57,504 nucleotides of DNA, taken from positions 1 through 57,504 of IMG/VR virus record IMGVR_UViG_3300027822_000014; one strand, given 5' to 3'. Made by a program: the position numbers and the translations under genes. This document shows positions 1-57,504 of this stretch, one piece after another (positions within the stretch are counted from its first letter, which is position 1; each line of letters starts with the position of its first letter). This DNA comes from a virus (lineage: Duplodnaviria > Caudoviricetes). The notes beneath the pieces were generated by a model that saw nothing but the letters and a program-made list of their open reading frames with translations, did not search any database and was not told where the DNA came from.

Positions 1-134
1 GTGTCGGGCTGGCCAGCGGTGATCACCCAGGCCACATATAGTGAAACCGACGGCCAAACAGCCAGACGGTGACGTACAGCCGGAACCCCTGCCCGCGCGT
101 GATCAGATGAGCCCGCCCAGGCAGGGTGCAATTC
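1..134. repeat. Terminal direct repeat, left copy (assembly circularity overlap)
   Basis: 1-134 is identical to 57371-57504 except one base (127 T vs 57497 G). It cuts through early hairpin element E6. Confidence 0.95.
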
Positions 135-435
135 AATCGCATTCGGTGTGGAACCGCTGCGACACGTCCAGCTTGGTCAAGCGCCCTTCGCATTCCTGCT
201 CCACCAGCTTGGCCTTGAACTGGCGGAACCCGTTGTTGCTAACGCCTTCAGAGCGGTAGATCAGGAACCGGGCGAACTGTGACGGACGGCAGGTGATCTC
301 CGCACAGTTGAACCAGAGCTTATCGGCTTCGTGGTGTTTCAGCTTGAAGGCTCGCATGGCCGCGTCCATAGCGGCCCGCTTGTTGCTGTCGCAATCGGTG
401 AACTTGAATTTTACACGGTCACGTGACTGTGGCAT
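133..435 (-). CDS. Early hypothetical protein (100 aa, MPQSRDRV...)
   Basis: Start moved to the ATG at 435, which follows a strong AGAGGAGAGAGAC RBS. The longer ORF-track start runs through hairpin E1. Confidence 0.75.
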   Translation of the reverse strand: MPQSRDRVKFKFTDCDSNKRAAMDAAMRAFKLKHHEADKLWFNCAEITCRPSQFARFLIYRSEGVSNNGFRQFKAKLVEQECEGRLTKLDVSQRFHTECD

Positions 436-453
436 GTCTCTCTCCTCTTGTTG

Positions 454-526
454 TCGTGCAGGTGCGCACGGTAGGGCCGCGCCGGACGGTCTAGACCGTG
501 CTCGGCGCGACCCAGCGGTGTGCACC
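454..526 (-). ncRNA. Early structured element E1
   Basis: GGUGCACAC-CGCU-[stem-loop]-UACC-GUGCGCACC-UGCACGA, then RBS. Same architecture as E2-E7. Confidence 0.75.
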
Positions 527-535
527 TAGTCCAGG

Positions 536-1600
536 TTAGGCAGCTTCAGCGAACGCGTGCCACTGTGAGCGGTCCAGCTCCAGGATTTTACCGCCCAGCT
601 CTTCAAGCTCGGTTGACCGGTCATAGCTCTCAACCGTCTGGGCCGTGGCCGTGACGGCGTTCAACAGCCCGTAGCGTGTCAGGTCACCGTTTTCGATGAG
701 TGACGTCAGCACGCCGTTTTTCTCGGTCTCATTGAGCTGGTGCGATTTGGCCAGCACCTCGACAGCTTCCACCGGGCGCACGATCTTTTCACCCTCGGCA
801 GCTTCGCGGAACTTGTTGACCTGCTGATCAAAGAACGCTTGCTCCAGCGACGCCTTCACAACGTCGCGCATCTTGAGCATGATCGCATTGTCATCGGCCC
901 GCAGGGTTTCGTCCGACAGCATCGCGTAAACGCTCTCTGACGTGTCAGCCTGTGCGCCGACATGAGCCTTGCGGAACTTGGCGTCATTGATCACGCAACC
1001 GTTCAGGCACCAGAGACGATGCACGATCGGTGTCACGCATGCCGCGCCAAAACCGATTTCGGAATTGGTGATCATCACGCCAGCCTCGACAACATCATCC
1101 TTGCGCACATCAGCCCGCAACCGCTCATTGACTGCCTTGATGTACAGCCGCCGCTCGGTCACCTCGCAAGAGGCGATAGCAATGCCCGGCGTGTTCATCA
1201 GGACCGGCAGAATGGCCTCGGCAATGTGTTCGTTGTCAATCCGCTGGTAGCGGTCAGACAGGAATGCACGCGCCTTGCCGTCCAGGGTGCGCACCATGCG
1301 CCGCTCGGCGTTGTTCTCAAACCAGTGATTGACGTTGGTTGCGAGCAACTCCGGCGCGGTCTCGCGCATGCGGTCATAATACGCCGCCGGGATATTGGTG
1401 CGCTGGCCAATCTGGCGGTGTGCAGTCTGCTGGATAGGAAACGTCTGCACCTCACCGGCCACCGGCACCACAAGAGCGGGCGCGGCGTCTGCCGTGGCAC
1501 GCATCTGCAGTTGCTGGGTGTCTGCAACGAAGTCCGCTTTCGCGTCCTGACGGCGCTGGATTTCGTTAGCCAGTTCAACAATCGTTTTTCCATGCTTCAT
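536..1600 (-). CDS. DUF932-like phage protein (354 aa)
   Basis: ARAFLSDRY..IDN, ITNSEIG, RLWCLNG and GLLNAVT motifs are typical of this family. AGAGGAGAG RBS. Confidence 0.75.
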   Translation of the reverse strand: MKHGKTIVELANEIQRRQDAKADFVADTQQLQMRATADAAPALVVPVAGEVQTFPIQQTAHRQIGQRTNIPAAYYDRMRETAPELLATNVNHWFENNAERRMVRTLDGKARAFLSDRYQRIDNEHIAEAILPVLMNTPGIAIASCEVTERRLYIKAVNERLRADVRKDDVVEAGVMITNSEIGFGAACVTPIVHRLWCLNGCVINDAKFRKAHVGAQADTSESVYAMLSDETLRADDNAIMLKMRDVVKASLEQAFFDQQVNKFREAAEGEKIVRPVEAVEVLAKSHQLNETEKNGVLTSLIENGDLTRYGLLNAVTATAQTVESYDRSTELEELGGKILELDRSQWHAFAEAA

Positions 1601-1624
1601 ATGTCTTACTCTCCTCTAGGGTTA

Positions 1625-1679
1625 TCGTGCGGTGTGCACGGTAGGACCGCACCCAGGGTGCGGCCCAGCGGTGAACACC
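1625..1679 (-). ncRNA. Early structured element E2
   Basis: GGUGUUCAC-CGCU-GGGCCGCACC(CUG)GGUGCGGUCC-UACC-GUGCACACC-GCACGA. It begins within the upstream TAG stop. Confidence 0.75.
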
Positions 1680-1903
1680 TAAGCAAACCAGACAAAGCCA
1701 TTAAAGCGCGGTTCATTGTTGCCGCTGGTGCGCTGGTACGGCGTGTACCGGGCAACACCCCAGCTTGCAGGCTTGTTGCCTTCGTACCATGAATGCGGCA
1801 TGACCTTGTACGTCGCGTCCGCAGGTTCATCACGGTTGCAATGCCCCGCCTTGACGTTGCGCATTGCCTGCCGTGCTTCGTCTCTGGTCTTAAACCCGTA
1901 CAT
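1679..1903 (-). CDS. Early hypothetical protein (74 aa)
   Basis: AGAGGAGAGAAAA RBS. Overlaps the end of the upstream gene, and its stop abuts E2. Confidence 0.7.
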   Translation of the reverse strand: MYGFKTRDEARQAMRNVKAGHCNRDEPADATYKVMPHSWYEGNKPASWGVARYTPYQRTSGNNEPRFNGFVWFA

Positions 1904-2579
1904 TTTTCTCTCCTCTTGTGACTGCCGTCACCTTCAGACGCTGTGATCCGTGCGCCGGGAACCCGACAACCGTCTCGCGCTGGCGCTGGCAAAGCTGGCA
2001 CGTGGCACAGCTCACATCGTCACGCGTGACCGCCGGGCAGATGACGATTGTCCGACCTGCCGGTGTTTCGCTGTTGGTCGTCTGGTCAGACGGCAGCACA
2101 GTGACAACCGGCCCGATCTCCAGCGCGGCCAGCTCGTCAGCGTGCGCGGGCGAGTTGGCAGACAGATTAATGGTGAACCCGTCACGGTTCGCCCTAGCGA
2201 TGGCGTCACGCTCGCGCTGTGTGGTCAGAGGCTTGTGCGTGTAGGTGAACCCGCGCGAGCGGCCATTGGCACTCGTCAGCTCGTCAACACACATCACGCC
2301 CAGGTTATCGCCAGTGCCGGGCAGGTCACCTGCCTGATTATGCCGCCAGAGCTGGCCAGCCGGCAGCGCGCGCACCTTGGCCACGAACGTCTGCCAGTCA
2401 CTGCCGACATTCGGCTGTTTCATCATCCGGCCCCACCACAGCGACAGCGGCCCGCCTTGCGCATAGCACCCGGCGTCCAGAAACGGGCAGGACGTCGGGC
2501 AGGTGTCGCGGTGGCTGGTGCTGACCGGTATCGGGCCGACCTTGCGGTTACGTGACACGGGTGTCAGGTGGTACTTCAT
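1890..2579 (-). CDS. Cys-rich conserved phage protein (gp88/DUF7227-like, possible Fe-S protein)
   Basis: N-K-x-GPIP, TCPxSCPF...CYAxxG, RHNQAGD, FTYTH and CATCQLC...GFPAHG motifs. Confidence 0.65.
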   Translation of the reverse strand: MKYHLTPVSRNRKVGPIPVSTSHRDTCPTSCPFLDAGCYAQGGPLSLWWGRMMKQPNVGSDWQTFVAKVRALPAGQLWRHNQAGDLPGTGDNLGVMCVDELTSANGRSRGFTYTHKPLTTQRERDAIARANRDGFTINLSANSPAHADELAALEIGPVVTVLPSDQTTNSETPAGRTIVICPAVTRDDVSCATCQLCQRQRETVVGFPAHGSQRLKVTAVTRGEKNVRV

Positions 2580-2752
2580 ACAGCCTCACAATCCAGCGCG
2601 TGACGCTGTGCATGGTGAAACTGCACCATTGCCGCGTCTATCTCGCCCAGTGCAAAGGTCTTGACGTCAAGCCCGTATCGCACATGCAATTGAAAGCTGG
2701 TCTTGATCAGCGCGACATCATTAACGGTGTCGTGCGCCAGAAACTGCAACAT
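2576..2752 (-). CDS. Early hypothetical protein (58 aa, MLQFLAHD...)
   Basis: AGAGGAGAGAACCAC-ATG at 2752. ATGA overlap with the next gene. Confidence 0.7.
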   Translation of the reverse strand: MLQFLAHDTVNDVALIKTSFQLHVRYGLDVKTFALGEIDAAMVQFHHAQRHALDCEAV

Positions 2753-2769
2753 GTGGTTCTCTCCTCTTG

Positions 2770-2832
2770 TCATGCGGGATTGCATGGTAGGGCCGCACCC
2801 AGGATGGCAGGGTGCGGCCCAGCGATGCAATC
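2770..2832 (-). ncRNA. Early structured element E3
   Basis: GAUUGCAU-CGCU-GGGCCGCACCC...GGGUGCGGCCC-UACC-AUGCAAUC-CCGCAUGA, then RBS. Confidence 0.75.
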
Positions 2833-2837
2833 GCGGT

Positions 2838-3239
2838 CTAGTCGTCCGCTTCGTCAGTCTCGGCGCTGTTCAGGTATCCGCCGAATGCCTTCCACGTGAA
2901 ATCGCGGCAATCGATCACGCACACCCCGGCGTCGCCGTGGCTTTCGCTGGCCAGCACGCTGGCCGCTGCCTTGCTGGTCGGGTCCGCTGTGATCTGCAGG
3001 ACTGCAGCTTGCAGGTCGGCGTCCGCATTCCAGATACCCAGCGAAAGATTGCCGCTGATCTGTTCATGCGCAAGGCCAACGAAGCGAGCGGCGGCATACT
3101 GCACATCGCCCTTGCGGTCGGCCATCAGCTTTTCGTGTGCTGCCGCGAGCTGCGGCACCTCGCTGCCTGACCAATGCAGGTAAATCACCGGTGAAACGGT
3201 GGTGTCATCGTGAAAAATTACAAGTGCGCGGTCACCCAT
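2838..3239 (-). CDS. Early hypothetical protein (133 aa, MGDRA...IYLHWSG family)
   Basis: Strong RBS. The MGxRA...YxHW N-terminus recurs in phage early proteins. Confidence 0.75.
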   Translation of the reverse strand: MGDRALVIFHDDTTVSPVIYLHWSGSEVPQLAAAHEKLMADRKGDVQYAAARFVGLAHEQISGNLSLGIWNADADLQAAVLQITADPTSKAAASVLASESHGDAGVCVIDCRDFTWKAFGGYLNSAETDEADD

Positions 3240-3257
3240 GGGTGTCTCTCCTCTAGT

Positions 3258-3313
3258 TCATGCAGGATTGCATGGTAGGCCAGCCGGTTGCCCGGCTGGC
3301 CAGCGATGCAATC
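3258..3313 (-). ncRNA. Early structured element E4
   Basis: GAUUGCAU-CGCU-GGCCAGCCGG(GCAA)CCGGCUGGCC-UACC-AUGCAAUC-CUGCAUGA, with a GNRA tetraloop. Confidence 0.8.
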
Positions 3314-3491
3314 AGCAGGAATAGATTGACGGATCGACGCAGCGGCAGAACCGCACGGCGTTCAGGTCCACACATTCAAAATGCACCCGGAAGGCGTCCA
3401 GCGCCTCGCGGTCACTGTCGCTGATCTGCTCGGCGCGGTGTGCATCTTCCAGCGCTGCCCATTCGATCAATTCAGCTTGCAAGTCAAACAT
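3312..3491 (-). CDS. Early hypothetical protein (59 aa, MFDLQAELIEW...), not in ORF track
   Basis: Manually translated. AGAGGAGAGAGAACG-ATG, and the ORF exactly fills the gap between E5 and E4. Confidence 0.7.
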   Translation of the reverse strand: MFDLQAELIEWAALEDAHRAEQISDSDREALDAFRVHFECVDLNAVRFCRCVDPSIYSC

Positions 3492-3509
3492 CGTTCTCTC
3501 TCCTCTAGG

Positions 3510-3570
3510 TCATGCGGGGTTGCATGGTAGGCCAGCGCGCCGTTGCCGGGCGCTGTCCAGCGATGCAATC
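3510..3570 (-). ncRNA. Early structured element E5
   Basis: GAUUGCAU-CGCU-GGACAGCGC..CG(GCAA)CG..GCGCUGGCC-UACC-AUGCAACC-CCGCAUGA. It overlaps the upstream TGA stop. Confidence 0.75.
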
Positions 3571-4252
3571 AAGCGGTGGCCATTGGCGAGCTGCCAACGG
3601 GCGGGAAGTCATAGACGGCGTTCAATGCAGCGCCACCCCATTGCCGTGCCATGGCAGCGGCCATGCCGGGGAAAAAGCGGCTACGCTCGGTTGCACGGTT
3701 CGCGCCGGGCGCTGCCTTGTGGACGCTGTCGCGGGCCGTGGTGCCGTCAAGCTGGCCGGTGGCTGTCAGTTTGGGCAGGTTCTTCAGCCAGAAGCATGTG
3801 CGCTTTTTCTCATTGTCGGCGCTGTCTTCAGACTGGGCGAATTGCCACGGCTGAACGGACTGGGCAAACGGCTGATAGTTGGTGATGCGGGCTTTTGCAT
3901 ACTTGTGCATCACCGGGTTCTCGACAGCGATGCGCGGCACGTCTGCATTCCAGCACGCGGAGAACAACGCAGCGCCTTCGTCAAGGTCGGCCCACATCTC
4001 GCCAAGGGTGCGGCCCGGTGGTGCTTTCTTCAGCCAGCGCACGCCGGAATTGCACAGCCGCGTGCAGGGCGGATGCATGACGGCGAGCAAGTCCCATTGG
4101 CTGAAGGCGAGCACGTTGCGCACATCGTCTTGAATGTGCCGGTTGCTTGGTGTCTCGGATGGTTTCAGGTCGCATGACCACGCGTCATGGCCAAGTGCCA
4201 GAAACGCGTCGCGGACCGTGCCGCTACATTCGCATGCTATCAGGACTTTCAC
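3569..4252 (-). CDS. DNA cytosine-5 methyltransferase-like protein
   Basis: VLIACECSG (SAM-binding-like), DAWSCD, catalytic HPPCT, AVENPV and KKRTCFWLKNLP motifs. First gene after the early promoter. Confidence 0.7.
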   Translation of the reverse strand: MKVLIACECSGTVRDAFLALGHDAWSCDLKPSETPSNRHIQDDVRNVLAFSQWDLLAVMHPPCTRLCNSGVRWLKKAPPGRTLGEMWADLDEGAALFSACWNADVPRIAVENPVMHKYAKARITNYQPFAQSVQPWQFAQSEDSADNEKKRTCFWLKNLPKLTATGQLDGTTARDSVHKAAPGANRATERSRFFPGMAAAMARQWGGAALNAVYDFPPVGSSPMATA

Positions 4253-4332
4253 GGTTGTCTCTCCTCTAGGTGCACCAGATGGTGCGATACGGTATCAAAT
4301 CGGCATGTGCACGGCATGTGCGCCGTGTGCAC

Positions 4333-4362
4333 ATTATATGCACAAATGCATGTAAAGTGCAA
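4333..4362 (-). promoter_or_regulatory. Sigma70-type early promoter
   Basis: TTGCAC-N18-TATAAT on the - strand, upstream of the early operon. Confidence 0.65.
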
Positions 4363-4610
4363 GAAAAAACGCACGAAGCTATAAGTTGTTGATATTGCTG
4401 GGCTTTTATCCAGGGTGGCAAAATGTGAGCGATGGCGTGATTTCGGGTCCGAAAATGGCCGTTTGCTGTGAGCGTGATTACGGCAGGAATGTGACGAAGT
4501 GTAACGGGTGCCAGTTGTGCACGTCTGGGTTGTGCTAGGTCGCACGGATCGTGCAATCTGGCAAAATACATATTCAGTTGTCGGCATGTATAATATGGCT
4601 AAAAAGTGTT

Positions 4611-4812
4611 GGCTCACACCCTGGGTGCCAGAATGTTCAATGATTTCAGTAAAAATAAGGGTGTGAGCTGTGAGCACTGTTCCAAAAAGTTTGACAAAAT
4701 CCGAAAGGGGGGTTCAGGAATTACTAAATAGTTTTGAACCATGGCTCACAGCTCACACCCCTCACACCCTGTTCGGGTAGCGTCACCGTTTGCGGCACTG
4801 ATATTGTGTGAG
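4611..4812. repeat. CTCACA(CCC) iteron-like repeats with a perfect 17-bp inverted repeat (putative origin or packaging site)
   Basis: GGGTGTGAGCTGTGAGC (4659-4675) and GCTCACAGCTCACACCC (4744-4760) flank an AT-rich spacer. Extra copies at 4611-4621, 4761-4769 and ~4806. Confidence 0.65.
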
Positions 4813-5247
4813 TTAACCACATTCCCGTTAACGTGGCGTACGCGCAAAATCGCGCCGGTTTCTGGTCGCCGTGTGGCACGTGGCTAGTTTGCACGGATTT
4901 TGCAATGTAGCAAAACGGTACTCCAATACCACATGACTTGCACGCCGCACGGCGACGCTGTAGGCTCGCGCACGTGGCATATTCCACTGCAGAGCGTGTT
5001 TATCGACGCAACGTGATCATTACGGCCATCGCGGCGGACCTGACGGCCAGCAACACCACGTTTGCGCGCGCCCGGCGCGCGCGCCACTAGGAAAAACGTG
5101 CGAAGCTCCATACAGAAAACCATATATAGCGGTGCCCCCTTTTAGAAAGTTCAGTGCCCATTGACCCACACAACAAATACGGATCAAAATCGAAAATAAC
5201 AGCTTCCAGTTGCACTGTCGGTGCATCTTAATTTTTTCCAAACAGAT

Positions 5248-5276
5248 TTGACATTTTAAGCTTTAAGATGCACGTT
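5248..5276 (+). promoter_or_regulatory. Possible promoter for the packaging operon
   Basis: TTGACA-N17-CACGTT (weak -10) just upstream of terS. Confidence 0.35.
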
Positions 5277-5299
5277 TCGTGCAAAGTAGGATTCAGCTC

Positions 5300-6319
5300 A
5301 TGACCCAGGCCCCGAGCCCGAATAATTTTTTGAAATCAGCCGGCACCCCAAAACCCCCGCGGGGCAAACGGGCCAAGGCCCCGCCGCCCGAAATTGACGA
5401 CGAGCAAGTCGAAGAAGACGGCGATGATGGTGAGCCAAAAACTGCCATCCAGCGCATGCGCGAGTTCATGCACGAGCAAAGCTCCGACATCACACGTTTC
5501 TGGGATGCGCGCTCGAGTTATGGTGACGCACCGTTTTTTGCCCTGCCTGACCAGCTGTGGGAGGCCTCTCGCGAGTACTTCGCTTGGTGTGAAGAGCACC
5601 CGCTGTGGGAGGCGAAAGTCGTCAGCTACAAGGGCGATGCCAGCATTGTGCCGCTGAAGAAGATGCGCGCGATGACCATGACCAGCCTGCTGAATTTCCT
5701 CGATATCTCGGCAGATACGTGGGAAGGCCTGCGAAAAAAGCCCGAATTTCTGCCAACCGTCACCCGCGTGGAGAGTGTTATCCATGACCAGAAGTTGCAG
5801 GGTGGCCTGGCTGATCTGCTGAATGCGAACGTGGTGGTCCGTGATTTGAAGCTGAAGGACCACAGCGAAGTCAGCAACACGGGCGTCGTGCCAATGAGCG
5901 GCACTGACGTCACCACCCTCGAGCTGGCGAAAGCCGTAGCCCTGCTGCTGACTAAGGGCGTCTCAGTGCTCGACATACCGGCACACCCGTCGGATAACGC
6001 AAAGGATGTGACACACCATGCCCAGGATGAAAACGAAAGTAAGCAACCGAAACCGCAGACAACTGCCGAAAAAGAGGAACAAGAACCGCCTCGGCAAACA
6101 GAAGCAGGGCCTCGTGCACTCGAGGGCGAAGTCGGAAACCCCGGCCAAGGGCAAGACAGCGCAGGCCAGAGCGGCGATGGCGAACCAGCCACAAAAAGAC
6201 CCGGACGATCTAAGGCCCGGCGGATCGCTGGACCCGGCGAAGAACCCGATCCCACAGACAAATACGGACCCGGGGCTTCAAGAAAACTCTCTGAACACGG
6301 CACAGACGGGAAACTCTGA
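5300..6319 (+). CDS. terS: Terminase small subunit (P22 gp3-like) with a long disordered C-terminal extension
   Basis: LWEASREYFAWCEEHPLWE...KMRAMTMTSLLNFLDIS..TW...LLNANVVVRDL matches the P22-type packaging protein. Lies directly upstream of TerL. Confidence 0.8.
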   Translation: MTQAPSPNNFLKSAGTPKPPRGKRAKAPPPEIDDEQVEEDGDDGEPKTAIQRMREFMHEQSSDITRFWDARSSYGDAPFFALPDQLWEASREYFAWCEEHPLWEAKVVSYKGDASIVPLKKMRAMTMTSLLNFLDISADTWEGLRKKPEFLPTVTRVESVIHDQKLQGGLADLLNANVVVRDLKLKDHSEVSNTGVVPMSGTDVTTLELAKAVALLLTKGVSVLDIPAHPSDNAKDVTHHAQDENESKQPKPQTTAEKEEQEPPRQTEAGPRALEGEVGNPGQGQDSAGQSGDGEPATKRPGRSKARRIAGPGEEPDPTDKYGPGASRKLSEHGTDGKL

Positions 6320-6614
6320 TGACGATCGACCCGGACAAGCGCCGGCAGGCCAGAGCGGAACGCAGGCAGACGAAGGCGCAGCCAACCCGGCGCACCTCCA
6401 CCCACGCTTCAGAGGCGTTGACGCTGGAGCCGATGCGGAATCTGGCAGCGACGGTGACGGGGCCGGAACCGATAACACCGGAACCGTTCTCGCCAACGCA
6501 GACCGAGGCCCTGACAGCGGGCCAGACAGCCTTGCCGGAGACGCCGAAAGCGACGGAGATACCGCCGACGCCGATGGCGCAACTGCCGCAGCAGATACCA
6601 CTCGACTTAGGTGA
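6018..6614 (+). CDS. Possible overprinted gene (198 aa, basic N-terminus, acidic C-terminus) across the terS/terL junction
   Basis: Open alternative frame with AAGGA upstream. It ends where the conserved TerL domain begins. Confidence 0.4.
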   Translation: MPRMKTKVSNRNRRQLPKKRNKNRLGKQKQGLVHSRAKSETPAKGKTAQARAAMANQPQKDPDDLRPGGSLDPAKNPIPQTNTDPGLQENSLNTAQTGNSDDDRPGQAPAGQSGTQADEGAANPAHLHPRFRGVDAGADAESGSDGDGAGTDNTGTVLANADRGPDSGPDSLAGDAESDGDTADADGATAAADTTRLR

Positions 6615-8316
6615 TCTGACGAAGGTCATCGACGCGCTCAGCGCCGATGACCGCACTGCGCTGGTCCAGATGACCCAACAGATTCTGGCCCAGCCGTTTA
6701 TCTCCTCTGTGGGGCCGCAAACCAATGCGCTCCACTCGGAGGCAGACTTGCTGCTGTACGGTGGGGCTGCCGGCGGCGGCAAGTCAGCTCTCGAGGTCGG
6801 GTGCATGGCGCTCGAGCACCGCGAGGGCATCGTTTTCAGGCGTGAGGCGACGCAGCTCGACGGCCTGATCGAGTTCAGCCACGAGGTGCTGGGCGAGATC
6901 GGCGACTACAACAAGGTCGAGAAGCTGTGGGTGTTTGAACGCCCAGGCCAACCCACCCCGGACAAGCCGGACCCGAAGCCAGAGCGCTGCAGGCTGAAAT
7001 TTGCAGGCCTGCCGCAGGAGCTGGACTGGCGAAAGCACGCCGGTGTGGCCCGCGATTACATGGCATTCGACGAGGCCGGTGAGTTTACCCGCTCACAGGT
7101 GTTCAGCCTGCTCGCATGGCTCAGAACTACCACTGAAGGACAGCGCACCCGCGTCATTCTGGGCTCGAACCCGCCACGTGGTGGCGAGGGCGAGTGGATG
7201 ATGCAGGAGTTTGCGCCATGGTTGCAGCCGAAACACCCGTTTGCCGCCGCTCCGGGCGAGTTGAGGTGGGCGATCGTGGTCGGAAACGAGACCGAGTGGG
7301 TTGACGGGCCGGGCGTGTACGTCAGGAATGGTGAGGAATATGAAGCACTTAGCAGGACGTTCATCAAAGCCCAGCTCGACGATAATCCCTATCTACGAAA
7401 CACTCAGTATCGAGCACAGCTTCAATCGCTCCCGGAACCGCTACGATCTCAGCTTTTGTATGGCTCCTTCACGGCGGGTCGTGATGATCACGAATGGCAG
7501 GTCATCCCCAGCCACTGGATTACCCAGGCGCAGGAGCGCTGGGTGGACCGGCCCGAGGCTGGAAAACTCATGACCGCGACCGCAGCCGACATGGTGCAGG
7601 GCGGCAACGACAAGTTTCAGGTGCAGTCGAGATACGATGACTGGTTCTCGCGCTTCCTGTCGAAGAAAGGCCAGGAGATACCGGATGGGCCAACCGCGGC
7701 TGCCGAGATCGTCAAGGTCATGCGCGATCGCTGCAGGGTTGTGCTCGATGCCGGTGGCGGTTACGCTGGCGACGCACTGACACAACTAGCGCACGCTGAT
7801 ATTGACTGTTTCGCCTTTGATGGGTCACGGAGTGCATCGGGAAAATCACGCGATGGGTTGTTCACGTTTCGTAATTTCAGGGCTCAGGCCGTATGGTTGC
7901 TGCGCGAAGCGCTCGACCCGGCATTCAACTCTACGATTATGCTGCCGCCAGACCCGGAACTCTATGCGGACCTTACTGCGTATCGCTACGAGGTCAAAGG
8001 CACCCGGAAAGCCGGTGGCGAGATCACGGTGGGGCCGAAGGAAGAGATGAGGGAACGGTTGGGGCGGTCGCCTGACAAGGGCGACACCACGATCATGCTT
8101 CACGTGAGCCACTCGGGTGTGCTAAAGAGGCCGAAGGCCGCACAGGACCGCCAGTCGCGGAAACCGACGCAGCTCAAGGCGATAACATCGTCGAAGACGA
8201 AGATGGACCCCCGCGGTAAGAGGCGGAAAAAGTTCAAACGGAAGGATCACGATCATGTCGAAACTGTTCGCCCCGGACATTCCAGAGCAGGAAGATCCCG
8301 CACCTCTCCCAGATGA
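6319..8316 (+). CDS. terL: Terminase large subunit (true start may be later, e.g. 6574)
   Basis: Walker A YGGAAGGGKS, Walker B MAFDEAGEF, coupling motif SNPP, and nuclease motifs AADMVQGGND and RSPDKGD. Confidence 0.95.
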   Translation: MTIDPDKRRQARAERRQTKAQPTRRTSTHASEALTLEPMRNLAATVTGPEPITPEPFSPTQTEALTAGQTALPETPKATEIPPTPMAQLPQQIPLDLGDLTKVIDALSADDRTALVQMTQQILAQPFISSVGPQTNALHSEADLLLYGGAAGGGKSALEVGCMALEHREGIVFRREATQLDGLIEFSHEVLGEIGDYNKVEKLWVFERPGQPTPDKPDPKPERCRLKFAGLPQELDWRKHAGVARDYMAFDEAGEFTRSQVFSLLAWLRTTTEGQRTRVILGSNPPRGGEGEWMMQEFAPWLQPKHPFAAAPGELRWAIVVGNETEWVDGPGVYVRNGEEYEALSRTFIKAQLDDNPYLRNTQYRAQLQSLPEPLRSQLLYGSFTAGRDDHEWQVIPSHWITQAQERWVDRPEAGKLMTATAADMVQGGNDKFQVQSRYDDWFSRFLSKKGQEIPDGPTAAAEIVKVMRDRCRVVLDAGGGYAGDALTQLAHADIDCFAFDGSRSASGKSRDGLFTFRNFRAQAVWLLREALDPAFNSTIMLPPDPELYADLTAYRYEVKGTRKAGGEITVGPKEEMRERLGRSPDKGDTTIMLHVSHSGVLKRPKAAQDRQSRKPTQLKAITSSKTKMDPRGKRRKKFKRKDHDHVETVRPGHSRAGRSRTSPR

Positions 8317-8630: not shown

Positions 8631-10285
8631 GCCAGCAAGGCAAAGACCTCCTGTCGCTATGTGACCGGATGTTCGGGCAAAAGGAAACGTGGGACAGTCT
8701 CTGCCAGGAGATTGGCTACTTTTTTGCCCCGCACAAGGCCGACTTCACCGACGAGATTTATCTCGGCGAGGAGTTCGCCTCGCATATCACCGACCCCACG
8801 CCACTGATCATGGCGCGCGACTTAGGCGACAGTTTTGGCACCATGCTGCGCTCCGAGGAGTGGTTCAAGATCGCCGTTGACGACGATCGGATCATGAACA
8901 AGCAGGAAAACCGCGTTTTTCTGGACTATATGACCGAGGTTACCCGGTCGATGCTGTACGACAAGCGTGGTGGTTTCACCCGCATGGCCAAGGAGCACGA
9001 GCATGACTTCGCCCAGTTCGGCGGCGGGGTCTCGAGCATCAATCTGAACAAGCAATACGACGGGTTCACGTGCCGTAACTGGCACATGCGCGACACCGCC
9101 TTCAACACCAACGACGACAACGAGATCGACCGGCTGGGGCGCAAGATCAACACCACCGCACGCAACTGCGTGACGAAATTCGACGGTGCGCCGCGCGCAA
9201 AAGTGCCGCAACACTTGAAAGAAACCTACGACAACGACGCCGACGCCAAAGTAAAACTGCGACATATTGCCATACCTCGGGATATGTATTCCGAAGAGGT
9301 GCGCAACATTCCCAACGATGCCAAATTCGTGAGCGTTTACCTGTCCGATCAGGGCGAAGTCATCCAGGAACTGCCGGAAATGGAGTTCCCGTACATCGTC
9401 TCACGCTGGCGCACAGTCTCAGGCTGGGGCGCCTACCCCTTCTCGCCGGCCACAATGGCTGCTCTGCCCATGTCTCGGGGCCTCCAGACCATGATGCAGA
9501 CCTTCATCGAGGCTGGCGAGAAGCAGGTCGACCCACCGCTGATTGCTACCAGCGAGGCGATTTCTTCTCCAGTGGACATCACTTCGGGCGGCATCACGTG
9601 GGTCGATGCTGAATACGACGAGCGCATGGGAGCGCCGCTGGTGCCGCTCGAGCTGGGCAAGAACGTCAAGCTCGGCGAGGCCATGCTGATGACCTTCCAC
9701 CGCCTCATGGGCGAGGCCTTATACATTTCGAAGCTGAACATGCCGCAGGCTGCCGGCGAAGGCACTGCCTACGAGATGAGCCAGCTGATCCAGCAGAACA
9801 TCAGGCAGCTGGTGCCGATCTTCGAGCCCGCGCAGGACGAGATCGTGTACCGCTACCTTGACCGCATTGTCACCACGGCCATGCGGCTGGGGGCATATGG
9901 CCCGATCGAGAACATCCCACGCGACCTGCTGGCTCAGAACATCACCTACACCTTCAACAATCCGCTGCAGGCCGAGCGTGATCGCAAGAAAGCGGCCCAG
10001 TTCCAAGAGGCCATGGGCATCGGCAGCGCTGCGCTGCAGCTCGATCCGAGCCTCGCTACCGAGCTGAACCCGATTCAGTGGGTCAGGGACGCCATGCAGG
10101 GCATTGGAGCACCTGCAGACTGGCTGAAGCCTGAAGAAATCGCCATGCAGGAGCGCATGCAGATGGCCGCACAGCAGCAGCAGCAGCAGGAGCAGCAGCA
10201 AATGGCCCAGATGGCCGACACCCTGCAGCGTGGCGGCACCGGCGTGAACCAGATCGCGCAAGCTGAAGCGGCTGGTGCGCAATGA
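8627..10285 (+). CDS. Portal / head-to-tail connector protein
   Basis: 552 aa. FPYIVSRW...YPFSPA, EKQVDPPL and TAYE motifs, with a Q-rich tail. T7 gp8/BPP-1-like. Confidence 0.9.
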   Translation: MSQQGKDLLSLCDRMFGQKETWDSLCQEIGYFFAPHKADFTDEIYLGEEFASHITDPTPLIMARDLGDSFGTMLRSEEWFKIAVDDDRIMNKQENRVFLDYMTEVTRSMLYDKRGGFTRMAKEHEHDFAQFGGGVSSINLNKQYDGFTCRNWHMRDTAFNTNDDNEIDRLGRKINTTARNCVTKFDGAPRAKVPQHLKETYDNDADAKVKLRHIAIPRDMYSEEVRNIPNDAKFVSVYLSDQGEVIQELPEMEFPYIVSRWRTVSGWGAYPFSPATMAALPMSRGLQTMMQTFIEAGEKQVDPPLIATSEAISSPVDITSGGITWVDAEYDERMGAPLVPLELGKNVKLGEAMLMTFHRLMGEALYISKLNMPQAAGEGTAYEMSQLIQQNIRQLVPIFEPAQDEIVYRYLDRIVTTAMRLGAYGPIENIPRDLLAQNITYTFNNPLQAERDRKKAAQFQEAMGIGSAALQLDPSLATELNPIQWVRDAMQGIGAPADWLKPEEIAMQERMQMAAQQQQQQEQQQMAQMADTLQRGGTGVNQIAQAEAAGAQ

Positions 10286-46153: not shown

Positions 46154-46559
46154 CGAGTGCCTCCTTCTGCAGCTGCCGTGCTGCCCTGAATGCGAGCCGA
46201 CAGTCCAGCTCGTTGTTGAGCTGGGCCGTGTGGAAGTCGTGAAACCCCAGCCGCTTACTCATCTCTCGGTAGATGGCGCTGCGATCCCACGTCCCTGTCT
46301 TCCACAGCGGGTCCAGCACACGATGAACGTCCTGGCGGAGCCGACGTATGGAGCTGGTCGGTATCGAGCCCAGCGGCTCGCCCGTGGCCCCGTGCGTGCC
46401 GACATACAGGTCGTCGAACGGGCACTGCCAGAACAGTTTCTTGTGCAGGGCCTTGCGGTGCGGGTAAACGTCCGCGCCGGTGATGCAGACAGCGTCGACA
46501 AGGCCAGCGCACGAGCAGCAGTAGATTTCCTCGGTGTCACCCGGCTTACGTATCGTCAT
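46134..46559 (-). CDS. DUF3268-like zinc-finger protein
   Basis: CxxC..G.DVYPHR..L..K.FW.C....YVG.H....PLG.....R..R...H..LDPLWK. Confidence 0.75.
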   Translation of the reverse strand: MTIRKPGDTEEIYCCSCAGLVDAVCITGADVYPHRKALHKKLFWQCPFDDLYVGTHGATGEPLGSIPTSSIRRLRQDVHRVLDPLWKTGTWDRSAIYREMSKRLGFHDFHTAQLNNELDCRLAFRAARQLQKEALDVDENP

Positions 46560-47220
46560 CGCGCACCCCCTTATGGGTAACCAACACCGTCCACGAGACC
46601 GGGAACTGCGCGCCGCACAGCGTGCTGATCCGCTCGGCAACCTGGGTGGTCTCGGGCTGGGAGTGGCTGTCGAGCCGGAGATTGCACACCCGCGCGAACG
46701 CATAGAGGGTGCCGGTCCAGACCCACTCGGTCATCATGTTCAGCGGCAGCACCATACGTGCCATCTCCGGGGCCACACCCTGCTTCAGCAGGCTGTTGTA
46801 CCCGAGGAGTGCAGTCGTGCCCACGTGGTCAAGCACCTCATCGCATAGACTCTGGTCCAGACCTGCGCCATCGCTCGAGCCTTGCTTGGCGCCGTCGGTC
46901 GGTGCTGCACGCCACTGCTCAGGCAGGAAGAACTCAGGCTCGTCCGACACGTACCGGCGGCTGACTTCGTTCCAGCTCAGGCCGATCTGGTGCTTGACGA
47001 GCTGCCGGGCCACGAAGATCGGGGCCTTGATGCGCACCGACAAGGCGGCGTGTGCGAACGGCGACCAGTGGTCGTGGTCAGCAAGGTACTTGATCAGCTT
47101 CGCATCGCTGTCCTTCATCTGCGCGACGTGCTTGCCGAACGATACGCGGGCGGCGTTGACGACGGTCAGGTCACCACCCATGTGGTCTACGTATTCAACC
47201 GCGATCGGTGCGATTTTCAT
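46546..47220 (-). CDS. thyX: FAD-dependent thymidylate synthase
   Basis: VVNAARVSF, HWSPF, APIFVARQLVKH, WNEVSRRY and APEMARMVLP motifs. Confidence 0.95.
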   Translation of the reverse strand: MKIAPIAVEYVDHMGGDLTVVNAARVSFGKHVAQMKDSDAKLIKYLADHDHWSPFAHAALSVRIKAPIFVARQLVKHQIGLSWNEVSRRYVSDEPEFFLPEQWRAAPTDGAKQGSSDGAGLDQSLCDEVLDHVGTTALLGYNSLLKQGVAPEMARMVLPLNMMTEWVWTGTLYAFARVCNLRLDSHSQPETTQVAERISTLCGAQFPVSWTVLVTHKGVRDDDT

Positions 47221-48798: not shown

Positions 48799-49455
48799 TC
48801 AGAAGTGGAAGATCAGTGCAGCCTCGACACCGTGAGACCATGTGCCGTCCACAGTCACACCCTTGTCCCCGGTTTCGTTGATGTGCTGCAACCGATAGCC
48901 GCCCCGAAAAGCGAGCCGATCAGTCAGCGGCACAGTCACGCCGGCCAGCACCTGCTGGGCAAACGCCATGTCATCGCCACTGAAAGCCAGACCACCAATC
49001 ACAGCGTCTGTGTCCACGAATGCTAACCCGACACCTGCGCCGACATACGGGGTCAGCGCGAAGGGGCCTATCGGCACCTGGATCGCATGAACATCGTACA
49101 GGACGTTGAGCATCAGCGTGGTGGCCGTGGTCTCAGAGGTAGACACCGTCGTTGCGGTGTCCGTGGCAGCTCGTGTTGCCTCGATTTCGGCACGGATGGC
49201 GTCAGTGAGTTTCACACCGACAAATGCACCGAACCTGATGCCGGGATCAACGGTCACATCATATGTGGTTCCGGCGAACTCGGCTTCCGTGTCGTGTGTG
49301 AACACACCACCGATCAGTGCCCCGCCATAGAACATAGAAGGCGCGGTGGTCACCTGTGTCTTCGGCGCCACCATGTCAGCAGCAGACGCCACGCTCATGG
49401 TGGCGAGGGCAAGTCCAGCCGCGACGGCGATAGACATCAAAGCTCTCTTAATCAT
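48799..49455 (-). CDS. Outer-membrane beta-barrel protein (8-stranded, OMP_b-brl type)
   Basis: Signal peptide ..ASAAD, FYGG..IG, RAEIE, LTPYVGAGVG, GYR and a C-terminal Phe. Confidence 0.85.
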   Translation of the reverse strand: MIKRALMSIAVAAGLALATMSVASAADMVAPKTQVTTAPSMFYGGALIGGVFTHDTEAEFAGTTYDVTVDPGIRFGAFVGVKLTDAIRAEIEATRAATDTATTVSTSETTATTLMLNVLYDVHAIQVPIGPFALTPYVGAGVGLAFVDTDAVIGGLAFSGDDMAFAQQVLAGVTVPLTDRLAFRGGYRLQHINETGDKGVTVDGTWSHGVEAALIFHF

Positions 49456-54433: not shown

Positions 54434-55021
54434 TTACCAGTACAAATCGCCCGGGTTTTCGTCCGTGACCATGCCGACAATGTCAATCGGAATCAGCGCC
54501 TTCAGCCGCTCATCCTTGTACATGGCGGTGATGATCTCTTTCGCTGGCCAGCCCTCAACCGGCGTCTGCGCCAGATGATACCAGCCGCGCACGTCCAGGC
54601 CGTGGCCGATCAGCGTGAAGAACGCCGCCGCCTCGCTGGACCACTCAACGTCCAGCGTGATCTCATCCTCGTAGGCTGGCGGCGGCGGGCCGTGCTGCAT
54701 GAAGTGACCGGTGCCGTGCGGCACATAGGCTGTGGCCTCTGGCGTCATCGACAGGGCCACGTCGATGTGTGGCTCGGTCCACTTGGGCCTGTAGCTCCAC
54801 AGCGTGGCGTCGTAGATGGTGGCATTCCGGTCATATGGTGAGCCGGTGGTCACCCATGAGTGCTGGCTGTAGCCAACAACAGGGTGGTGTCCACGCGCCA
54901 CGCGTGAACCTTCAGGCAGCAGGCCGCTGCGGATCATGGCAAGGCTTGCCGCGTGGCATTGCTTGCTCCATTTCTCAGCACCGCCAATGGCGGCTGAAAG
55001 TGTCGTGAGGTTCACGTCCAT
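54434..55021 (-). CDS. Early hypothetical protein (195 aa)
   Basis: GGAGAG RBS. CH.AS...RVARG....QHSW....D (possible Cys-His-Asp, transglutaminase-like fold). Confidence 0.7.
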   Translation of the reverse strand: MDVNLTTLSAAIGGAEKWSKQCHAASLAMIRSGLLPEGSRVARGHHPVVGYSQHSWVTTGSPYDRNATIYDATLWSYRPKWTEPHIDVALSMTPEATAYVPHGTGHFMQHGPPPPAYEDEITLDVEWSSEAAAFFTLIGHGLDVRGWYHLAQTPVEGWPAKEIITAMYKDERLKALIPIDIVGMVTDENPGDLYW

Positions 55022-55051
55022 GTTGATCTCTCCAAAATTTTTTTAACGGGG

Positions 55052-55261
55052 CTATGTTGCAAAAACGGCTTGTGGCGGTTCCTGCTTCCCTGCTTTCTTA
55101 AACACTTGAGCCCTGAACTCGTTGCAAAGCCGGTCCAGGGTCAGCGGGTCCAGGTCTTTGATTGATATGGCTGTCCCCTCTTCGTCATTGCTCAATGATT
55201 TGGTACGCACGAAATTGGGTACTGAAAATGCTTCAAGGTCTATTTCGATGGTCGCTTTCAT
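55052..55261 (-). CDS. Hypothetical protein (69 aa)
   Basis: VPNFV....L..LC..FR..VF.KAGK pattern. AAGGA RBS. Confidence 0.7.
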   Translation of the reverse strand: MKATIEIDLEAFSVPNFVRTKSLSNDEEGTAISIKDLDPLTLDRLCNEFRAQVFKKAGKQEPPQAVFAT

Positions 55262-55324
55262 GGCCCGGTCCTTTCTGGGTATGGGCGGGGAAAACAGGGG
55301 GCCGGAACCCCCCGCTCAGGATCG

Positions 55325-56215
55325 TCAGGCTGACCAATGCAGATAGAACTGCTCCGGCGTGTCATGCTTCAGGACGAACTCGCACATCTCCGCAGTGATG
55401 CGCAGGCTGTCCACGTAGGACTTCAGCCGGTCATCCGAGCCACGGCACACCAGATAGGTGCACGGCTTGGAACCCGCGCCGCCAACCAGTGACGCCATGA
55501 TGTTGTCCGAGCCACCGTGGATGATGCCGACAAGCTGCAGCGGATCGTTGATGTAGAACTCGCCGATGCCGTTGCTGTAGCCGCCACCGCCGAACGGCTC
55601 GCTGTCTTTGTTCTTTTCCAGCTCGTCCTTGAATAGCTTCAGCGCGTCCTCTTTCGACGAGCATCTGGCAGCCACCTCGGCAGGGTCCGAGAACATATTG
55701 ACCGACGCCTCCATGACGATCAGGTCGCCGCCGTTCGCTTCGGCGTTGGCTTCCAGCTCGCGGGCAAGCTCCAGCGCCCGCATGTGCGACTGATTCCAGT
55801 CAGGCTGGAACCGGTATTCCTCGTCGCGCTCGCGGTCGAAAATCCAGTACAGCCCGTCCTTGCCGGTGGCGATCTTGGCCACGTGGTTGACCCCGCCCTC
55901 GTTGTAGCTGGAACGCAGATAGTTCAGCTTGAACATATGCTCGGGGTCGATCTCGGAATCCGGCACCACGGCCTCGCGCTGGATCGTGTCCGGGATAGAA
56001 TGCCAGCCGTACTCGCCTTTGACCATGCCCAGCTTGTCACCCAGCTCGGCAGACTGCTTGCGCGCTTCGTCCTTTTCGGCGTCGCTGCACTTGTCGTAGC
56101 CCTTGCCGCCGGTGATCTTGTCCCAGATAGCGGTGGTGCCTTTGTCGTAGGCGTCCTCCATCTCGTCGGCTTTGGCCACGTCGAAATACTGATACAGATG
56201 TACGTCTAAACCCAT
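55325..56215 (-). CDS. Early hypothetical protein (296 aa, MGLD family)
   Basis: CAGGAGAG RBS, downstream of E7. Confidence 0.8.
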   Translation of the reverse strand: MGLDVHLYQYFDVAKADEMEDAYDKGTTAIWDKITGGKGYDKCSDAEKDEARKQSAELGDKLGMVKGEYGWHSIPDTIQREAVVPDSEIDPEHMFKLNYLRSSYNEGGVNHVAKIATGKDGLYWIFDRERDEEYRFQPDWNQSHMRALELARELEANAEANGGDLIVMEASVNMFSDPAEVAARCSSKEDALKLFKDELEKNKDSEPFGGGGYSNGIGEFYINDPLQLVGIIHGGSDNIMASLVGGAGSKPCTYLVCRGSDDRLKSYVDSLRITAEMCEFVLKHDTPEQFYLHWSA

Positions 56216-56239
56216 GATTTTCTCTCCTGGTTAGTGGGG

Positions 56240-56295
56240 TCATGCTGGCGCATGGAAACGGGGCAGGGGTGGGGCCTGCCCGTAACGATGCGTCA
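56240..56295 (-). ncRNA. Early structured element E7 (divergent copy)
   Basis: UGACGCAU-CGUU-ACGGG..CCCGU-UUCC-AUGCGCCA-GCAUGA. It keeps both alternative pairings. Confidence 0.6.
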
Positions 56296-56305
56296 TCACC
56301 TTGGG

Positions 56306-56314
56306 TTAGCGCAT
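56306..56314 (-). other. Minigene ATG-CGC-TAA
   Basis: Preceded by the full phage RBS AGAGGAGAGAAAC. Confidence 0.5.
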
Positions 56315-56387
56315 GTTTCTCTCCTCTAAAAACGTTACATTTGCAGTATCAACTATGTTCACACATTGTGGACTATGGTGTCAATGC

Positions 56388-56720
56388 CTACCAGTCGAAT
56401 TTTTTCGTCCGTGACGTGAAAGCCACGTTACAGAACGGCACCTCCGCCTTGATTTCCACGTCCACGTCCGGCCCGATATCGTCGTGCACGTCCTTGCCGT
56501 TGATCTCTTCGGCCATGCGTTCGGCAATGAAATGCATGACGCCGGAGCGGCACACTTCCAGCGCCTCGTTTGTCGAGCTGGTGTGCTGCCGTGCCATGTG
56601 CAGCAGGTTGCCGATCATGTCACCGATCTGGGTGGTGATCTCCTCGTCCTGGGTTCCCATGGTGTTGGCGAACTCGGCCAGATGGCCCTCTATGCTTTCG
56701 ATTCTCTGCTCGTTGTTCAT
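56388..56720 (-). CDS. Early hypothetical protein (110 aa)
   Basis: GAGGA RBS and a D.IGNLLH motif. Confidence 0.7.
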   Translation of the reverse strand: MNNEQRIESIEGHLAEFANTMGTQDEEITTQIGDMIGNLLHMARQHTSSTNEALEVCRSGVMHFIAERMAEEINGKDVHDDIGPDVDVEIKAEVPFCNVAFTSRTKKFDW

Positions 56721-56935
56721 GCGTCCTCGCTTTCATCGATTTTCCAGTGGTGCGCCGGGAACGATACCCAGCTATGGGTTAAGTCGAGCGGCAGGTCGGT
56801 GACATTATCGAACTGCGCGCGCAGGTGACCGCCCAGGCCAGATGGCTGGAGCAAGGCGGTCTGCCCTTTGAGTTTGATGGTCCGGCCATGCCGGGCCACC
56901 ACGGTTTCGTTGCCGGTGTACGTGCCGTGCATCAT
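56717..56935 (-). CDS. Early hypothetical protein (72 aa)
   Basis: ATGA overlaps at both ends. LKG.TAL......AQFD. Confidence 0.65.
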   Translation of the reverse strand: MMHGTYTGNETVVARHGRTIKLKGQTALLQPSGLGGHLRAQFDNVTDLPLDLTHSWVSFPAHHWKIDESEDA

Positions 56936-57315
56936 TCGCTGGCCTTCGCTTTGTCATCACCGATCCACAGCCACGCCTGCACATAGGCACCGCCGTCAGC
57001 ACTCGGCGACACCAAAGCCTCGCCGTCGATTTCGATCTTGCCATCCTCCGCCCAGTGTTCGCGCGCAGCGTCGCGGTAGTTGTCGTCCGCGATGGCATCG
57101 TCATCGATCAGGTCCAGCTCTTGCCAGTCGTGGCTCAGGCTCAGCTCTGTTATCCGAACCCCTTCGTCCATCTTGCTGTTGTACCCGGTCAGGAAATTGT
57201 CGTCGGGCTCGCAGCAGTCCAGCACCTCGCTGGCCAGCTTGCGGGCGGCGTCTTCATTCACAGCCGTCACCCTGACCACAGCGTTCAGCCTGCAGTCGAA
57301 TCCAAATTGTTTCAT
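56932..57315 (-). CDS. Early hypothetical protein (127 aa)
   Basis: AGAGGAGAGAC RBS and a DG.IEID..A.VS....GAYVQAWLW motif. Confidence 0.75.
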   Translation of the reverse strand: MKQFGFDCRLNAVVRVTAVNEDAARKLASEVLDCCEPDDNFLTGYNSKMDEGVRITELSLSHDWQELDLIDDDAIADDNYRDAAREHWAEDGKIEIDGEALVSPSADGGAYVQAWLWIGDDKAKASE

Positions 57316-57333
57316 GCGTCTCTCCTCTTGTTG

Positions 57334-57398
57334 TCATGCGGGTGTGCACGGTAGGCCAGCCTGACACGTTGTGTCGGGCTGGCCAGCGGTGATCACCC
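57334..57398 (-). ncRNA. Early structured element E6
   Basis: GGUGAUCAC-CGCU-GGCCAGCC..GACAC(AAC)GUGUC..GGCUGGCC-UACC-GUGCACACC-CGCAUGA, then RBS. Confidence 0.75.
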
Positions 57399-57504
57399 AG
57401 GCCACATATAGTGAAACCGACGGCCAAACAGCCAGACGGTGACGTACAGCCGGAACCCCTGCCCGCGCGTGATCAGATGAGCCCGCCCAGGCAGGGGGCA
57501 ATTC
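57371..57504. repeat. Terminal direct repeat, right copy
   Basis: Matches 1-134. Confidence 0.95.

Follow-up and report, generated by a model that had tools for sequence, protein, structure and literature searches.

The window analysed here is the whole 57,504-nt stretch of DNA in the IMG/VR virus record IMGVR_UViG_3300027822_000014 (Duplodnaviria; Caudoviricetes), which represents the whole or nearly whole genome of a 57-kb uncultured marine podophage. Its minus strand carries an early block of genes in which a structured element, E1 to E7, is repeated. The genes that flank the elements are small ORFans, together with those for a DUF932-like protein, a DUF7227 protein and a DNA methyltransferase. 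E1 to E5 are located between consecutive genes and start 0-8 nt past the upstream stop codon, and the downstream ATG of every element is preceded by an AGGAGAG ribosome-binding site. The coordinates of the elements, which run from the conserved tail to the 5' end of the outer stem (P1) on the minus strand, are collected in the table.

Read on the mRNA strand, E1 to E6 consist of the 5' strand of P1 (8-10 nt), CGCU, an upper stem-loop of 23-40 nt, UACC and the 3' strand of P1 (P1'), which is followed by 0-2 nt, the tail GCAYGA, a further 2-7 nt, AGAGGAGAG and ATG. In the common plan, P1 has 7-10 bp and is separated by a 4x4 internal loop from an upper stem that is variable, rich in GC and at least 10 bp long; the GCAYGA tail follows P1'. 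The original prediction had given this architecture to all of the copies. It was recovered in full in E1 to E6, down to the AGGAGAG site and the ATG; E7 departs from it, having CGUU/UUCC in place of the loop and a P1 of ~6 pairs in 7, and the minimum-energy fold of its sense strand is made up of three separate hairpins without P1.

The number of copies was examined with a sequence motif and with a covariance model. The motif GGTAGG..CCAGCG occurs seven times in the window against an expectation of 0.23, and seven occurrences were reached in none of 100 shuffles. Six of these are E1 to E6, and the seventh (9404-9437), which lacks the stems, is a chance match. The covariance model (R1) was built from E1 to E6 (alignment A2) and run over the whole window with its filters off. 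The six seeds scored 70-84 bits and E7 was recovered independently, while the best match that is not an element, apart from reverse-strand echoes of the same palindromes, reached 13.9 bits (E = 0.12). There are therefore exactly seven copies, all of them within the ORFan-rich early block, which agrees with the number and the positions originally predicted.

Table. Position, composition, gene context, folding and covariance-model score of the seven copies (MFE, minimum free energy; z, folding z-score against shuffled sequence)
Element	Coordinates	Strand	P1 (5' strand/3' strand)	Internal loop	Upper stem-loop	Tail	Upstream context	Downstream gene (tail to ATG)	Folding	Model score
E1	454..527	-	AGGUGCACAC/GUGCGCACCU (one A.C)	CGCU/UACC	40 nt	GCACGA	starts 8 nt past stop of gene 536..1600	133..435 (18 nt)	MFE -48.9; z -5.22	72.7 bits
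E2	1625..1679	-	GGUGUUCAC/GUGCACACC (one U.C)	CGCU/UACC	10 bp with one G.U, CUG loop	GCACGA	P1 start overlapped by stop UAG of gene 1679..1903	536..1600 (24 nt)	z -4.11	70.3 bits
E3	2770..2832	-	GAUUGCAU/AUGCAAUC	CGCU/UACC	11 bp, 9-nt loop	GCAUGA	starts 5 nt past stop of gene 2838..3239	2576..2752 (17 nt)	z -5.95	83.9 bits
E4	3258..3313	-	GAUUGCAU/AUGCAAUC	CGCU/UACC	10 bp, GCAA loop	GCAUGA	P1 start overlapped by stop UGA of gene 3312..3491	2838..3239 (18 nt)	z -7.85	72.9 bits
E5	3510..3570	-	GAUUGCAU/AUGCAACC (one A.C)	CGCU/UACC	mismatch and bulge, GCAA loop	GCAUGA	P1 start overlapped by stop UGA of methyltransferase gene 3569..4252	3312..3491 (18 nt)	z -2.92 (2/200 shuffles equally good)	72.3 bits
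E6	57334..57398	-	GGGUGAUCAC/GUGCACACCC (2 mismatches)	CGCU/UACC	8+5 bp (one C.A)	GCAUGA (G.U in alternative hairpin)	104 nt past stop of gene 133..435, over contig-end overlap	56932..57315 (18 nt)	z -5.62	79.0 bits
E7 (diverged copy)	56240..56294	-	GACGCAU/AUGCGCC (one A.C)	CGUU/UUCC	~9 bp	GCAUGA	AT-rich spacer and 2-codon mini-ORF (56306-56314)	55325..56215 (24 nt)	z -4.4	21.9 bits (E = 0.0011; outside seed)

The main fold, comprising P1 and the upper stem, was assessed in E1 to E6, since MAFFT misaligned the 5' half of E7; E7 was included only in the count for the 3' helix described below (alignment A5). Standard pairs fill 92.6% of the 108 cells, and the pairing falls to 28-40% when the 3' partners are slid by 1-3 columns as a control. 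Both sides have changed in 9 of the 18 pairs, five of the ten in the upper stem and four of the eight in P1, as the predicted covariation of P1 had implied, and the covariation score of the fold was reached by none of 500 column shuffles. Each copy also folds more stably than its shuffled counterparts: z ranges from -2.9 to -7.9, and no equally good fold was found among 200 shuffles in six of the seven copies. The internal loop is invariant in all eight of its columns, compared with 16 of the 36 stem columns (one-sided Fisher P = 0.004), and the pairs that flank the loop are invariant G-C pairs (GG/CC). With the loop invariant and the stems varying, the loop is therefore constrained in its sequence and the stems only in their pairing. 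The repeat is real, structured and constrained in sequence.

The copies are paralogues and are not independent, and the number of independent compensatory events is therefore small. By P1 they fall into {E1, E2, E6} and {E3, E4, E5}, by the upper stem into {E1, E2, E3} and {E4, E5, E6}, and by the tail into {E1, E2} and all of the others. E3 combines the P1 of E4/E5 with the upper stem of E2, and in E6 a P1 like that of E1/E2 is joined to an upper stem like that of E4 and to a tail like that of E3/E5. Because the P1 and upper-stem groups are discordant, lower and upper modules must have been exchanged between copies, and the pattern indicates that this exchange took place at the conserved loop.

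It had also been predicted that the 3' strand of P1 can pair with the downstream tail instead. This is the case in every copy: the last C of UACC together with RUGC pairs with GCAYG in 35 of 35 cells. The further claim that this second hairpin covaries was not upheld. Four of its five pairs never vary, and the fifth is A-U in four copies, G-C in two and G.U in one, the last being E6, where it coincides with the mosaic make-up of that copy (a P1 of the E1/E2 type with a tail of the E3/E5 type). This degree of covariation was matched by 63 of 500 shuffles, and the exact chance of both C's falling on G's is P = 0.14. The hairpin is predicted to be weak alone (-4.4 to -6.2 kcal/mol). The proposal that the 3' product of a cut would refold into it fared better: for 3' fragments with their 5' end inside UACC, the predicted probability of the hairpin is 0.97-1.0 in E1, E3, E4, E5 and E7, 0.67-0.69 in E2 and 0.22-0.23 in E6. 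When the two states were compared with ~12 nt of extra flank on each side of the core element, an arrangement in which the outcome depends on arbitrary flank pairings, enforcing the second hairpin carried no cost in E2, E5 and E7, whose unconstrained minimum-energy folds include it in any case, and a cost of 0.5-6.4 kcal/mol relative to the unconstrained minimum in E1, E3, E4 and E6. The tail ends 17-18 nt before the ATG (24 nt in E2 and E7), so that the hairpin would lie just outside the ribosome-binding site. On these predictions the second hairpin is possible and well placed, without the support of covariation.

A likeness to the RNase III sites of phage T7 had been proposed, and the T7 early intergenic regions were therefore folded from the public record for comparison. 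The folds upstream of 0.3 and in 0.4/0.5, 0.7/1, 1/1.1 and 1.2/1.3 all share one plan, with a lower stem of 8-9 bp, a loop of ACUC (5') and UAUGA (3') and an upper stem of 9-13 bp; the upper stems have a recurring AAGGUC.../...GGCCUU, and GCAA loops occur in two of the regions. The likeness is borne out in geometry. The T7 sites R0.3, R0.5, R1, R1.1 and R1.3 are, like the phage elements, paralogous intercistronic hairpins of an early polycistronic region, and the two sets have in common a lower stem of ~8-10 bp, a loop of conserved sequence, an upper stem of ~9-13 bp, some GCAA loops and a position just upstream of the ribosome-binding site of the next gene. They differ in sequence, the covariance model reaching no more than 7.2 bits (E = 0.86) on T7 400-8200, and the likeness is therefore one of design and not of descent. 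The elements have a symmetric 4x4 loop, whereas excerpts of a study of T7 R1.1 describe a 60-nt RNA, located between genes 1.0 and 1.1, that has a primary site cut in vivo and an internal loop that is asymmetric (4/5 nt) (PMC6121014). The loop-flanking pairs are G-C in the elements and A-U-rich in T7, the stems of the elements are far richer in GC, and only the elements have a conserved tail that is able to pair again with P1'.

The elements most likely serve as post-transcriptional punctuation of the early mRNA. That they do so as sites at which a host RNase III-type enzyme processes or stabilises this mRNA is proposed tentatively, by analogy, and with somewhat less than even confidence. Excerpts of published work note that RNase III substrates typically span two helical turns, and that internal loops can restrict the enzyme to a single phosphodiester and leave 3' hairpins that protect against exonucleases (PMC1540722). 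A T7-type RNA polymerase was not found in the phage by a search that was positive on the T7 control, and no RNase III domain was detected in it; long transcripts made by the host polymerase, together with a host enzyme, are therefore plausible. We infer the cleavage, the enzyme, the position of the cut and any role of a 5' hairpin as follows. The elements would be transcribed within the minus-strand early mRNA, as punctuation between small early genes, and each would form a quasi-continuous helix of ~22-30 bp from P1, the 4x4 loop with one central G-C pair and the upper stem of at least 10 bp. Host RNase III, which is specific for double strands, would bind this helix, and the internal loop would confine the cut to one strand, probably on the UACC side. 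The upstream cistron would then end in the stable upper hairpin, a barrier to 3' exonucleases, and the downstream cistron would begin a few nucleotides before P1'. The freed P1' and the GCAYG tail could form a hairpin of 5 bp, with its end placed 19 nt upstream of the start codon, or 25 nt upstream of it in E2 and E7.

Were the elements processing sites, the strategy of T7, in which a long early transcript is cut at internal-loop hairpins and each small gene obtains a stable mRNA, would have arisen independently, and from unrelated sequence, in a GC-rich marine podophage dependent on the polymerase of its host. In that case the recognition preferences of a non-enterobacterial RNase III, or of another nuclease, could be read from the invariant 4x4 loop. 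A compact module of 55-75 nt, with hairpin, tail, ribosome-binding site and fixed spacing, could also serve as an operon insulator. As no more than passive hairpins or scars of recombination, the elements would be an ordinary finding.

The Correia repeat-enclosed elements of Neisseria, which are mobile chromosomal insertions of greater length, are bounded by inverted repeats in the same way as the phage elements. According to a published account they are co-transcribed with neighbouring genes and bind RNase III, which either cuts or protects them, and the expression of the adjacent genes is altered as a result (PMC2649163).

The elements were also sought beyond the window. The comparison with Rfam and the covariance-model search that had been suggested were carried out, and none of 4227 Rfam families matched at its gathering threshold anywhere in the window; at E <= 5 only noise from microRNA hairpins and long non-coding RNAs appeared, the best being mir-4018 (29.7 bits against a threshold of 66). 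A loose pattern yielded 80 loci in viral contigs, all of them coding or chance sequence without the stems. The strict pattern CGCTGG..CCTACCRTGC..GCAYGA yielded 7 viral, 38 metagenome and 42 genome loci, and the structure was present in none of these 87, the best of which had broken pairs and scored 26.0 bits, where true copies reach 70-84 bits. Single-protein searches with a 354-aa protein and with the helicase returned no close relatives of the phage. Helicase relatives that are 66, 58, 59, 57 and 47% identical were found in a large protein set, and an alignment of five of the relatives led to nine viral loci, of which three are true relatives (L175-L177; helicase ~58-60% identical). These three use the same AGGAGAGAA ribosome-binding sites and have no match to the covariance model (best 16 bits, E = 0.03) and no repeated intergenic hairpin. 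Phages of this kind can therefore do without the element. It belongs to no described family and has no homologue in the viral, metagenome and genome collections searched. As far as can be seen from these searches, the family is private to this phage, which would make it a recent expansion that is not essential to the lineage.

Several observations weigh against RNase III-type processing. The modelled helices of the sense strand have two G.U pairs against three A.C or C.A pairs, so that the wobble pairs, described as mixed in the original prediction, do not favour the sense strand, and the antisense strand has the lower folding energy in six of the seven copies, in part because the loop there becomes G.G, G-C, U.G and A.A. 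The sense strand is favoured by the local genes, all of which are on the minus strand, by the single orientation that the seven elements share relative to them, and by the GCAA tetraloops of E4 and E5, which are present as predicted and occur on the mRNA strand only. Taken together, the sequence evidence on the strand is mixed. The mosaic of P1 and upper-stem types points to recombination between copies and not to independent compensatory evolution, the covariation of the second hairpin is not significant, and the three nearest retrievable relatives lack the element while sharing the AGGAGAG sites. Furthermore, G-C pairs at certain positions of the proximal box inhibit the binding or cutting of RNA by Escherichia coli RNase III, according to a published account (PMC1540722); the invariant GG/CC beside the loop speaks against this reading, or at the least suggests that an enzyme of different specificity would be required. 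The virus contig is contained in full in a marine metagenome run, and among the runs containing the phage only this probable source, a DNA run, is listed, and no RNA run.

A somewhat unlikely alternative is that the elements are passive stabilisers or insulators similar to repetitive extragenic palindromes (REPs), the hairpins of which would block 3'-to-5' exonucleases and uncouple cistrons without any specific cut. The hairpins are very stable, rich in GC and located directly after stop codons, and the plus strand of E1 to E6 reads G-GTA-G, with GTA unpaired, followed by a GC-rich palindrome of 23-40 nt; the last G of GGTA+G is the first base of the stem. Excerpts of a published account describe REPs as palindromes of 20-40 bp that have a GTAG or CGTC tag in unpaired form and are found chiefly behind coding regions; many of them are thought to act as RNA (PMC3733652). 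The elements and the GTAG-tagged REPs share imperfect, GC-rich palindromes of 23-40 nt, GTA(G) at one end, G.T pairs, a location downstream of coding regions and a plausible action as RNA (PMC3733652). However, P1 and the invariant 4x4 loop are both conserved, although a barrier that acts passively would require neither of them; E7 lacks GTAG; and a Y1 (REP-associated tyrosine) transposase (RAYT; PF01797) had no match in six frames of the window. REPs exceed 100 copies in a chromosome, often with a RAYT gene, whereas the phage has seven elements, each with a second conserved stem around the palindrome and a conserved tail after it. In genome samples from two clades picked without knowledge of the host, for which alone the negatives hold, the covariance model matched none of 151 genomes of one family (E <= 0.001), and the pattern GTAGGCCAGC..GCTGGCC had at most four matches per genome in 301 genomes of one class. 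The upper stem may derive from a REP, an origin that would leave P1, the tail and the second half of the loop unaccounted for. An operator, at which a phage or host RNA-binding protein reads CGCU/UACC and controls translation, antitermination or decay downstream, would account for a loop that is invariant while the stems vary freely, for the fixed spacing to the start codon (17-18 nt in five copies and 24 nt in two) and for the confinement of the elements to the ORFan-rich early block, with none elsewhere in the 57.5 kb. It is nevertheless unlikely, as the ribosome-binding site is free in both predicted conformations. No RNA-binding or nuclease domain was found among 40 proteins scanned (30 against Pfam, 10 of these also against PHROGs, and 10 others against PHROGs only), which is a weak negative given the many ORFans.

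The elements might also be cut-and-refold modules, in which an endonuclease, or the RNA itself, cleaves at CGCU/UACC and P1' snaps onto the GCAYG tail. If this were so, a 3' hairpin would be added to the upstream cistron, the downstream cistron would begin with a 5' hairpin that borders directly on the ribosome-binding site, and the module would be a portable, two-sided cassette for mRNA stability that is spread by recombination among early genes; the enzyme could have a new specificity and need not be RNase III. This is judged to be quite improbable. A repeat that acts as DNA, through single-strand hairpins or as recombination hot spots, would mark the boundaries of cassettes by which small early genes are shuffled, any effect on RNA being incidental, and would resemble the promoter early stem-loop (PeSL) cassettes of T4 or hairpin-recognising transposition. 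It would accommodate wobble pairs without strand preference and an antisense strand that folds as well or better, and also the mosaic groups, which imply exchange between copies; the elements flank ORFan and accessory genes (DUF932, DUF7227 and methyltransferase), and the ribosome-binding site and 2-codon mini-ORF before E7 resemble a deletion scar. According to excerpts of two published accounts, PeSLs are repeated promoter-terminator motifs that have been proposed to mediate modular shuffling (PMC2839356, PMC4122927), and those of T4-type phages likewise include a stem-loop and flank small ORFan early genes in a variable region. A DNA-level role is nonetheless decidedly unlikely. No integrase or Y1 transposase was found in the window, the covariation of the stems and the fixed loop fit selection on a folded strand and are not needed for homologous recombination, and the P1 halves are a variable 23-40 nt apart, which speaks against a duplex-DNA dimer site; the common orientation relative to the genes and the GCAA (GNRA) loops on the mRNA strand also argue for RNA. 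PeSLs are moreover composites of promoter and terminator, whereas the elements have no promoter-like or terminator-like site and consist of two stems around an invariant loop. The original prediction had finally suggested that the element is a ribozyme that cleaves itself, or a switch in which a ligand decides between the long hairpin and the P1'/tail hairpin. Two mutually exclusive pairings are available in all seven copies and, with ~12 nt of extra flank on each side, are predicted to lie within 1.5-6.4 kcal/mol of one another, the alternative being the minimum in E2, E5 and E7. Set against this, there are only ~14 conserved unpaired nucleotides, the covariation of the second helix is not significant, and a ribosome-binding site that is free in both states would leave the switch without an obvious output; the suggestion found no support in Rfam (no match at the gathering threshold and only noise below it) and is very improbable.

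Other readings were considered and rejected. The elements are not intrinsic terminators: none of the terminator-like T-run sites of 1-5600 or 55000-57504 falls on any element, and the tails are GCAYGA. No sigma-70-like site is found on the elements, and with no T7-type polymerase found in the phage a promoter reading was also set aside. ARAGORN detects no tRNA in the window, and the elements are not tRNA-like on this test. Integron attC sites have R-box core sites at the base of their hairpin. An attC reading found no support from the associated tyrosine integrase (PF00589), which has no match in six frames of the window. Extension of P1 by pairing of the 5' flank with the tail is inconsistent between copies. 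The upstream stop overlaps P1 in E2, E4 and E5 and is 5-11 nt away in E1, E3 and E7, and the opening of P1 by terminating ribosomes is therefore not general.

The original prediction had assigned all of the copies to one operon, which goes further than the evidence allows at the E6 and E7 end of the block. E6 lies 104 nt past the previous stop. E7 lies 93 nt past the previous stop, behind a spacer that contains an AT-rich stretch and, on the minus strand at 56306-56327, a full-strength AGGAGAG site followed by a 2-codon open reading frame (ORF; AUG-CGC-UAA) 11 nt before E7, which may have been left behind by the deletion of a cassette or may be a start-stop leader. The gene downstream of E7 (55325..56215) is itself followed on the minus strand by a hairpin similar to an intrinsic terminator (55297-55313; GGGGG..CCCCC then TGTTTT), which suggests that it is a monocistronic unit. 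E7 is probably in a transcription unit of its own.

The contig ends, 1-134 and 57371-57504, are the same 134 nt with one mismatch (position 127, T vs G), and the genome is therefore a closed circle or terminally redundant, despite a record that is labelled linear with 85% completeness. The plus strand from 5279 to ~37400 encodes the terminase, portal/adaptor and tail proteins and a SASA-esterase fibre. The minus strand, from ~5250 down through position 1 and over the end overlap to ~37470, carries genes with products that include an SNF2-type helicase, DNA polymerase, primase, exonuclease and the thymidylate synthase ThyX (46546-47220; PF02511); an outer-membrane beta-barrel protein (PF13505) is encoded at 48799-49455 on the same strand. 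The tail protein is at most 29% identical to those of isolated phages, to which the phage is thus only distantly related, and the only DNA-level matches in phage records are to the methyltransferase gene (Paracoccus, Sinorhizobium and Agrobacterium phages among others). An extended ribosome-binding site, (A)GAGGAGAGA, is common to nearly all of the minus-strand genes; AAGGAGAGAA is used likewise in the relative L175 (2328-9109), and the site is therefore a trait of the lineage that is independent of the hairpins.

At the divergent junction with the structural genes, ~1 kb of the minus strand (4249-5250) has a lower GC content (54%), its ribosome-binding sites are weak or absent and its ORFs are doubtful; instead of coding for proteins, it may be regulatory or contain an origin. 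The segment 4265-4345 on the minus strand, upstream of the methyltransferase gene, has a TATAAT-like hexamer, a tandem CACATGCCG repeat and clustered GTGCAC/TGTGCACA palindromes. Genome-wide, GTGCAC is rarer than expected (15 observed against 28.9 expected), and seven of the 15 sites are within the early block, three of them inside E1, E2 and E6. This pattern may reflect an operator or promoter region at 4265-4345, or the avoidance of a restriction site.

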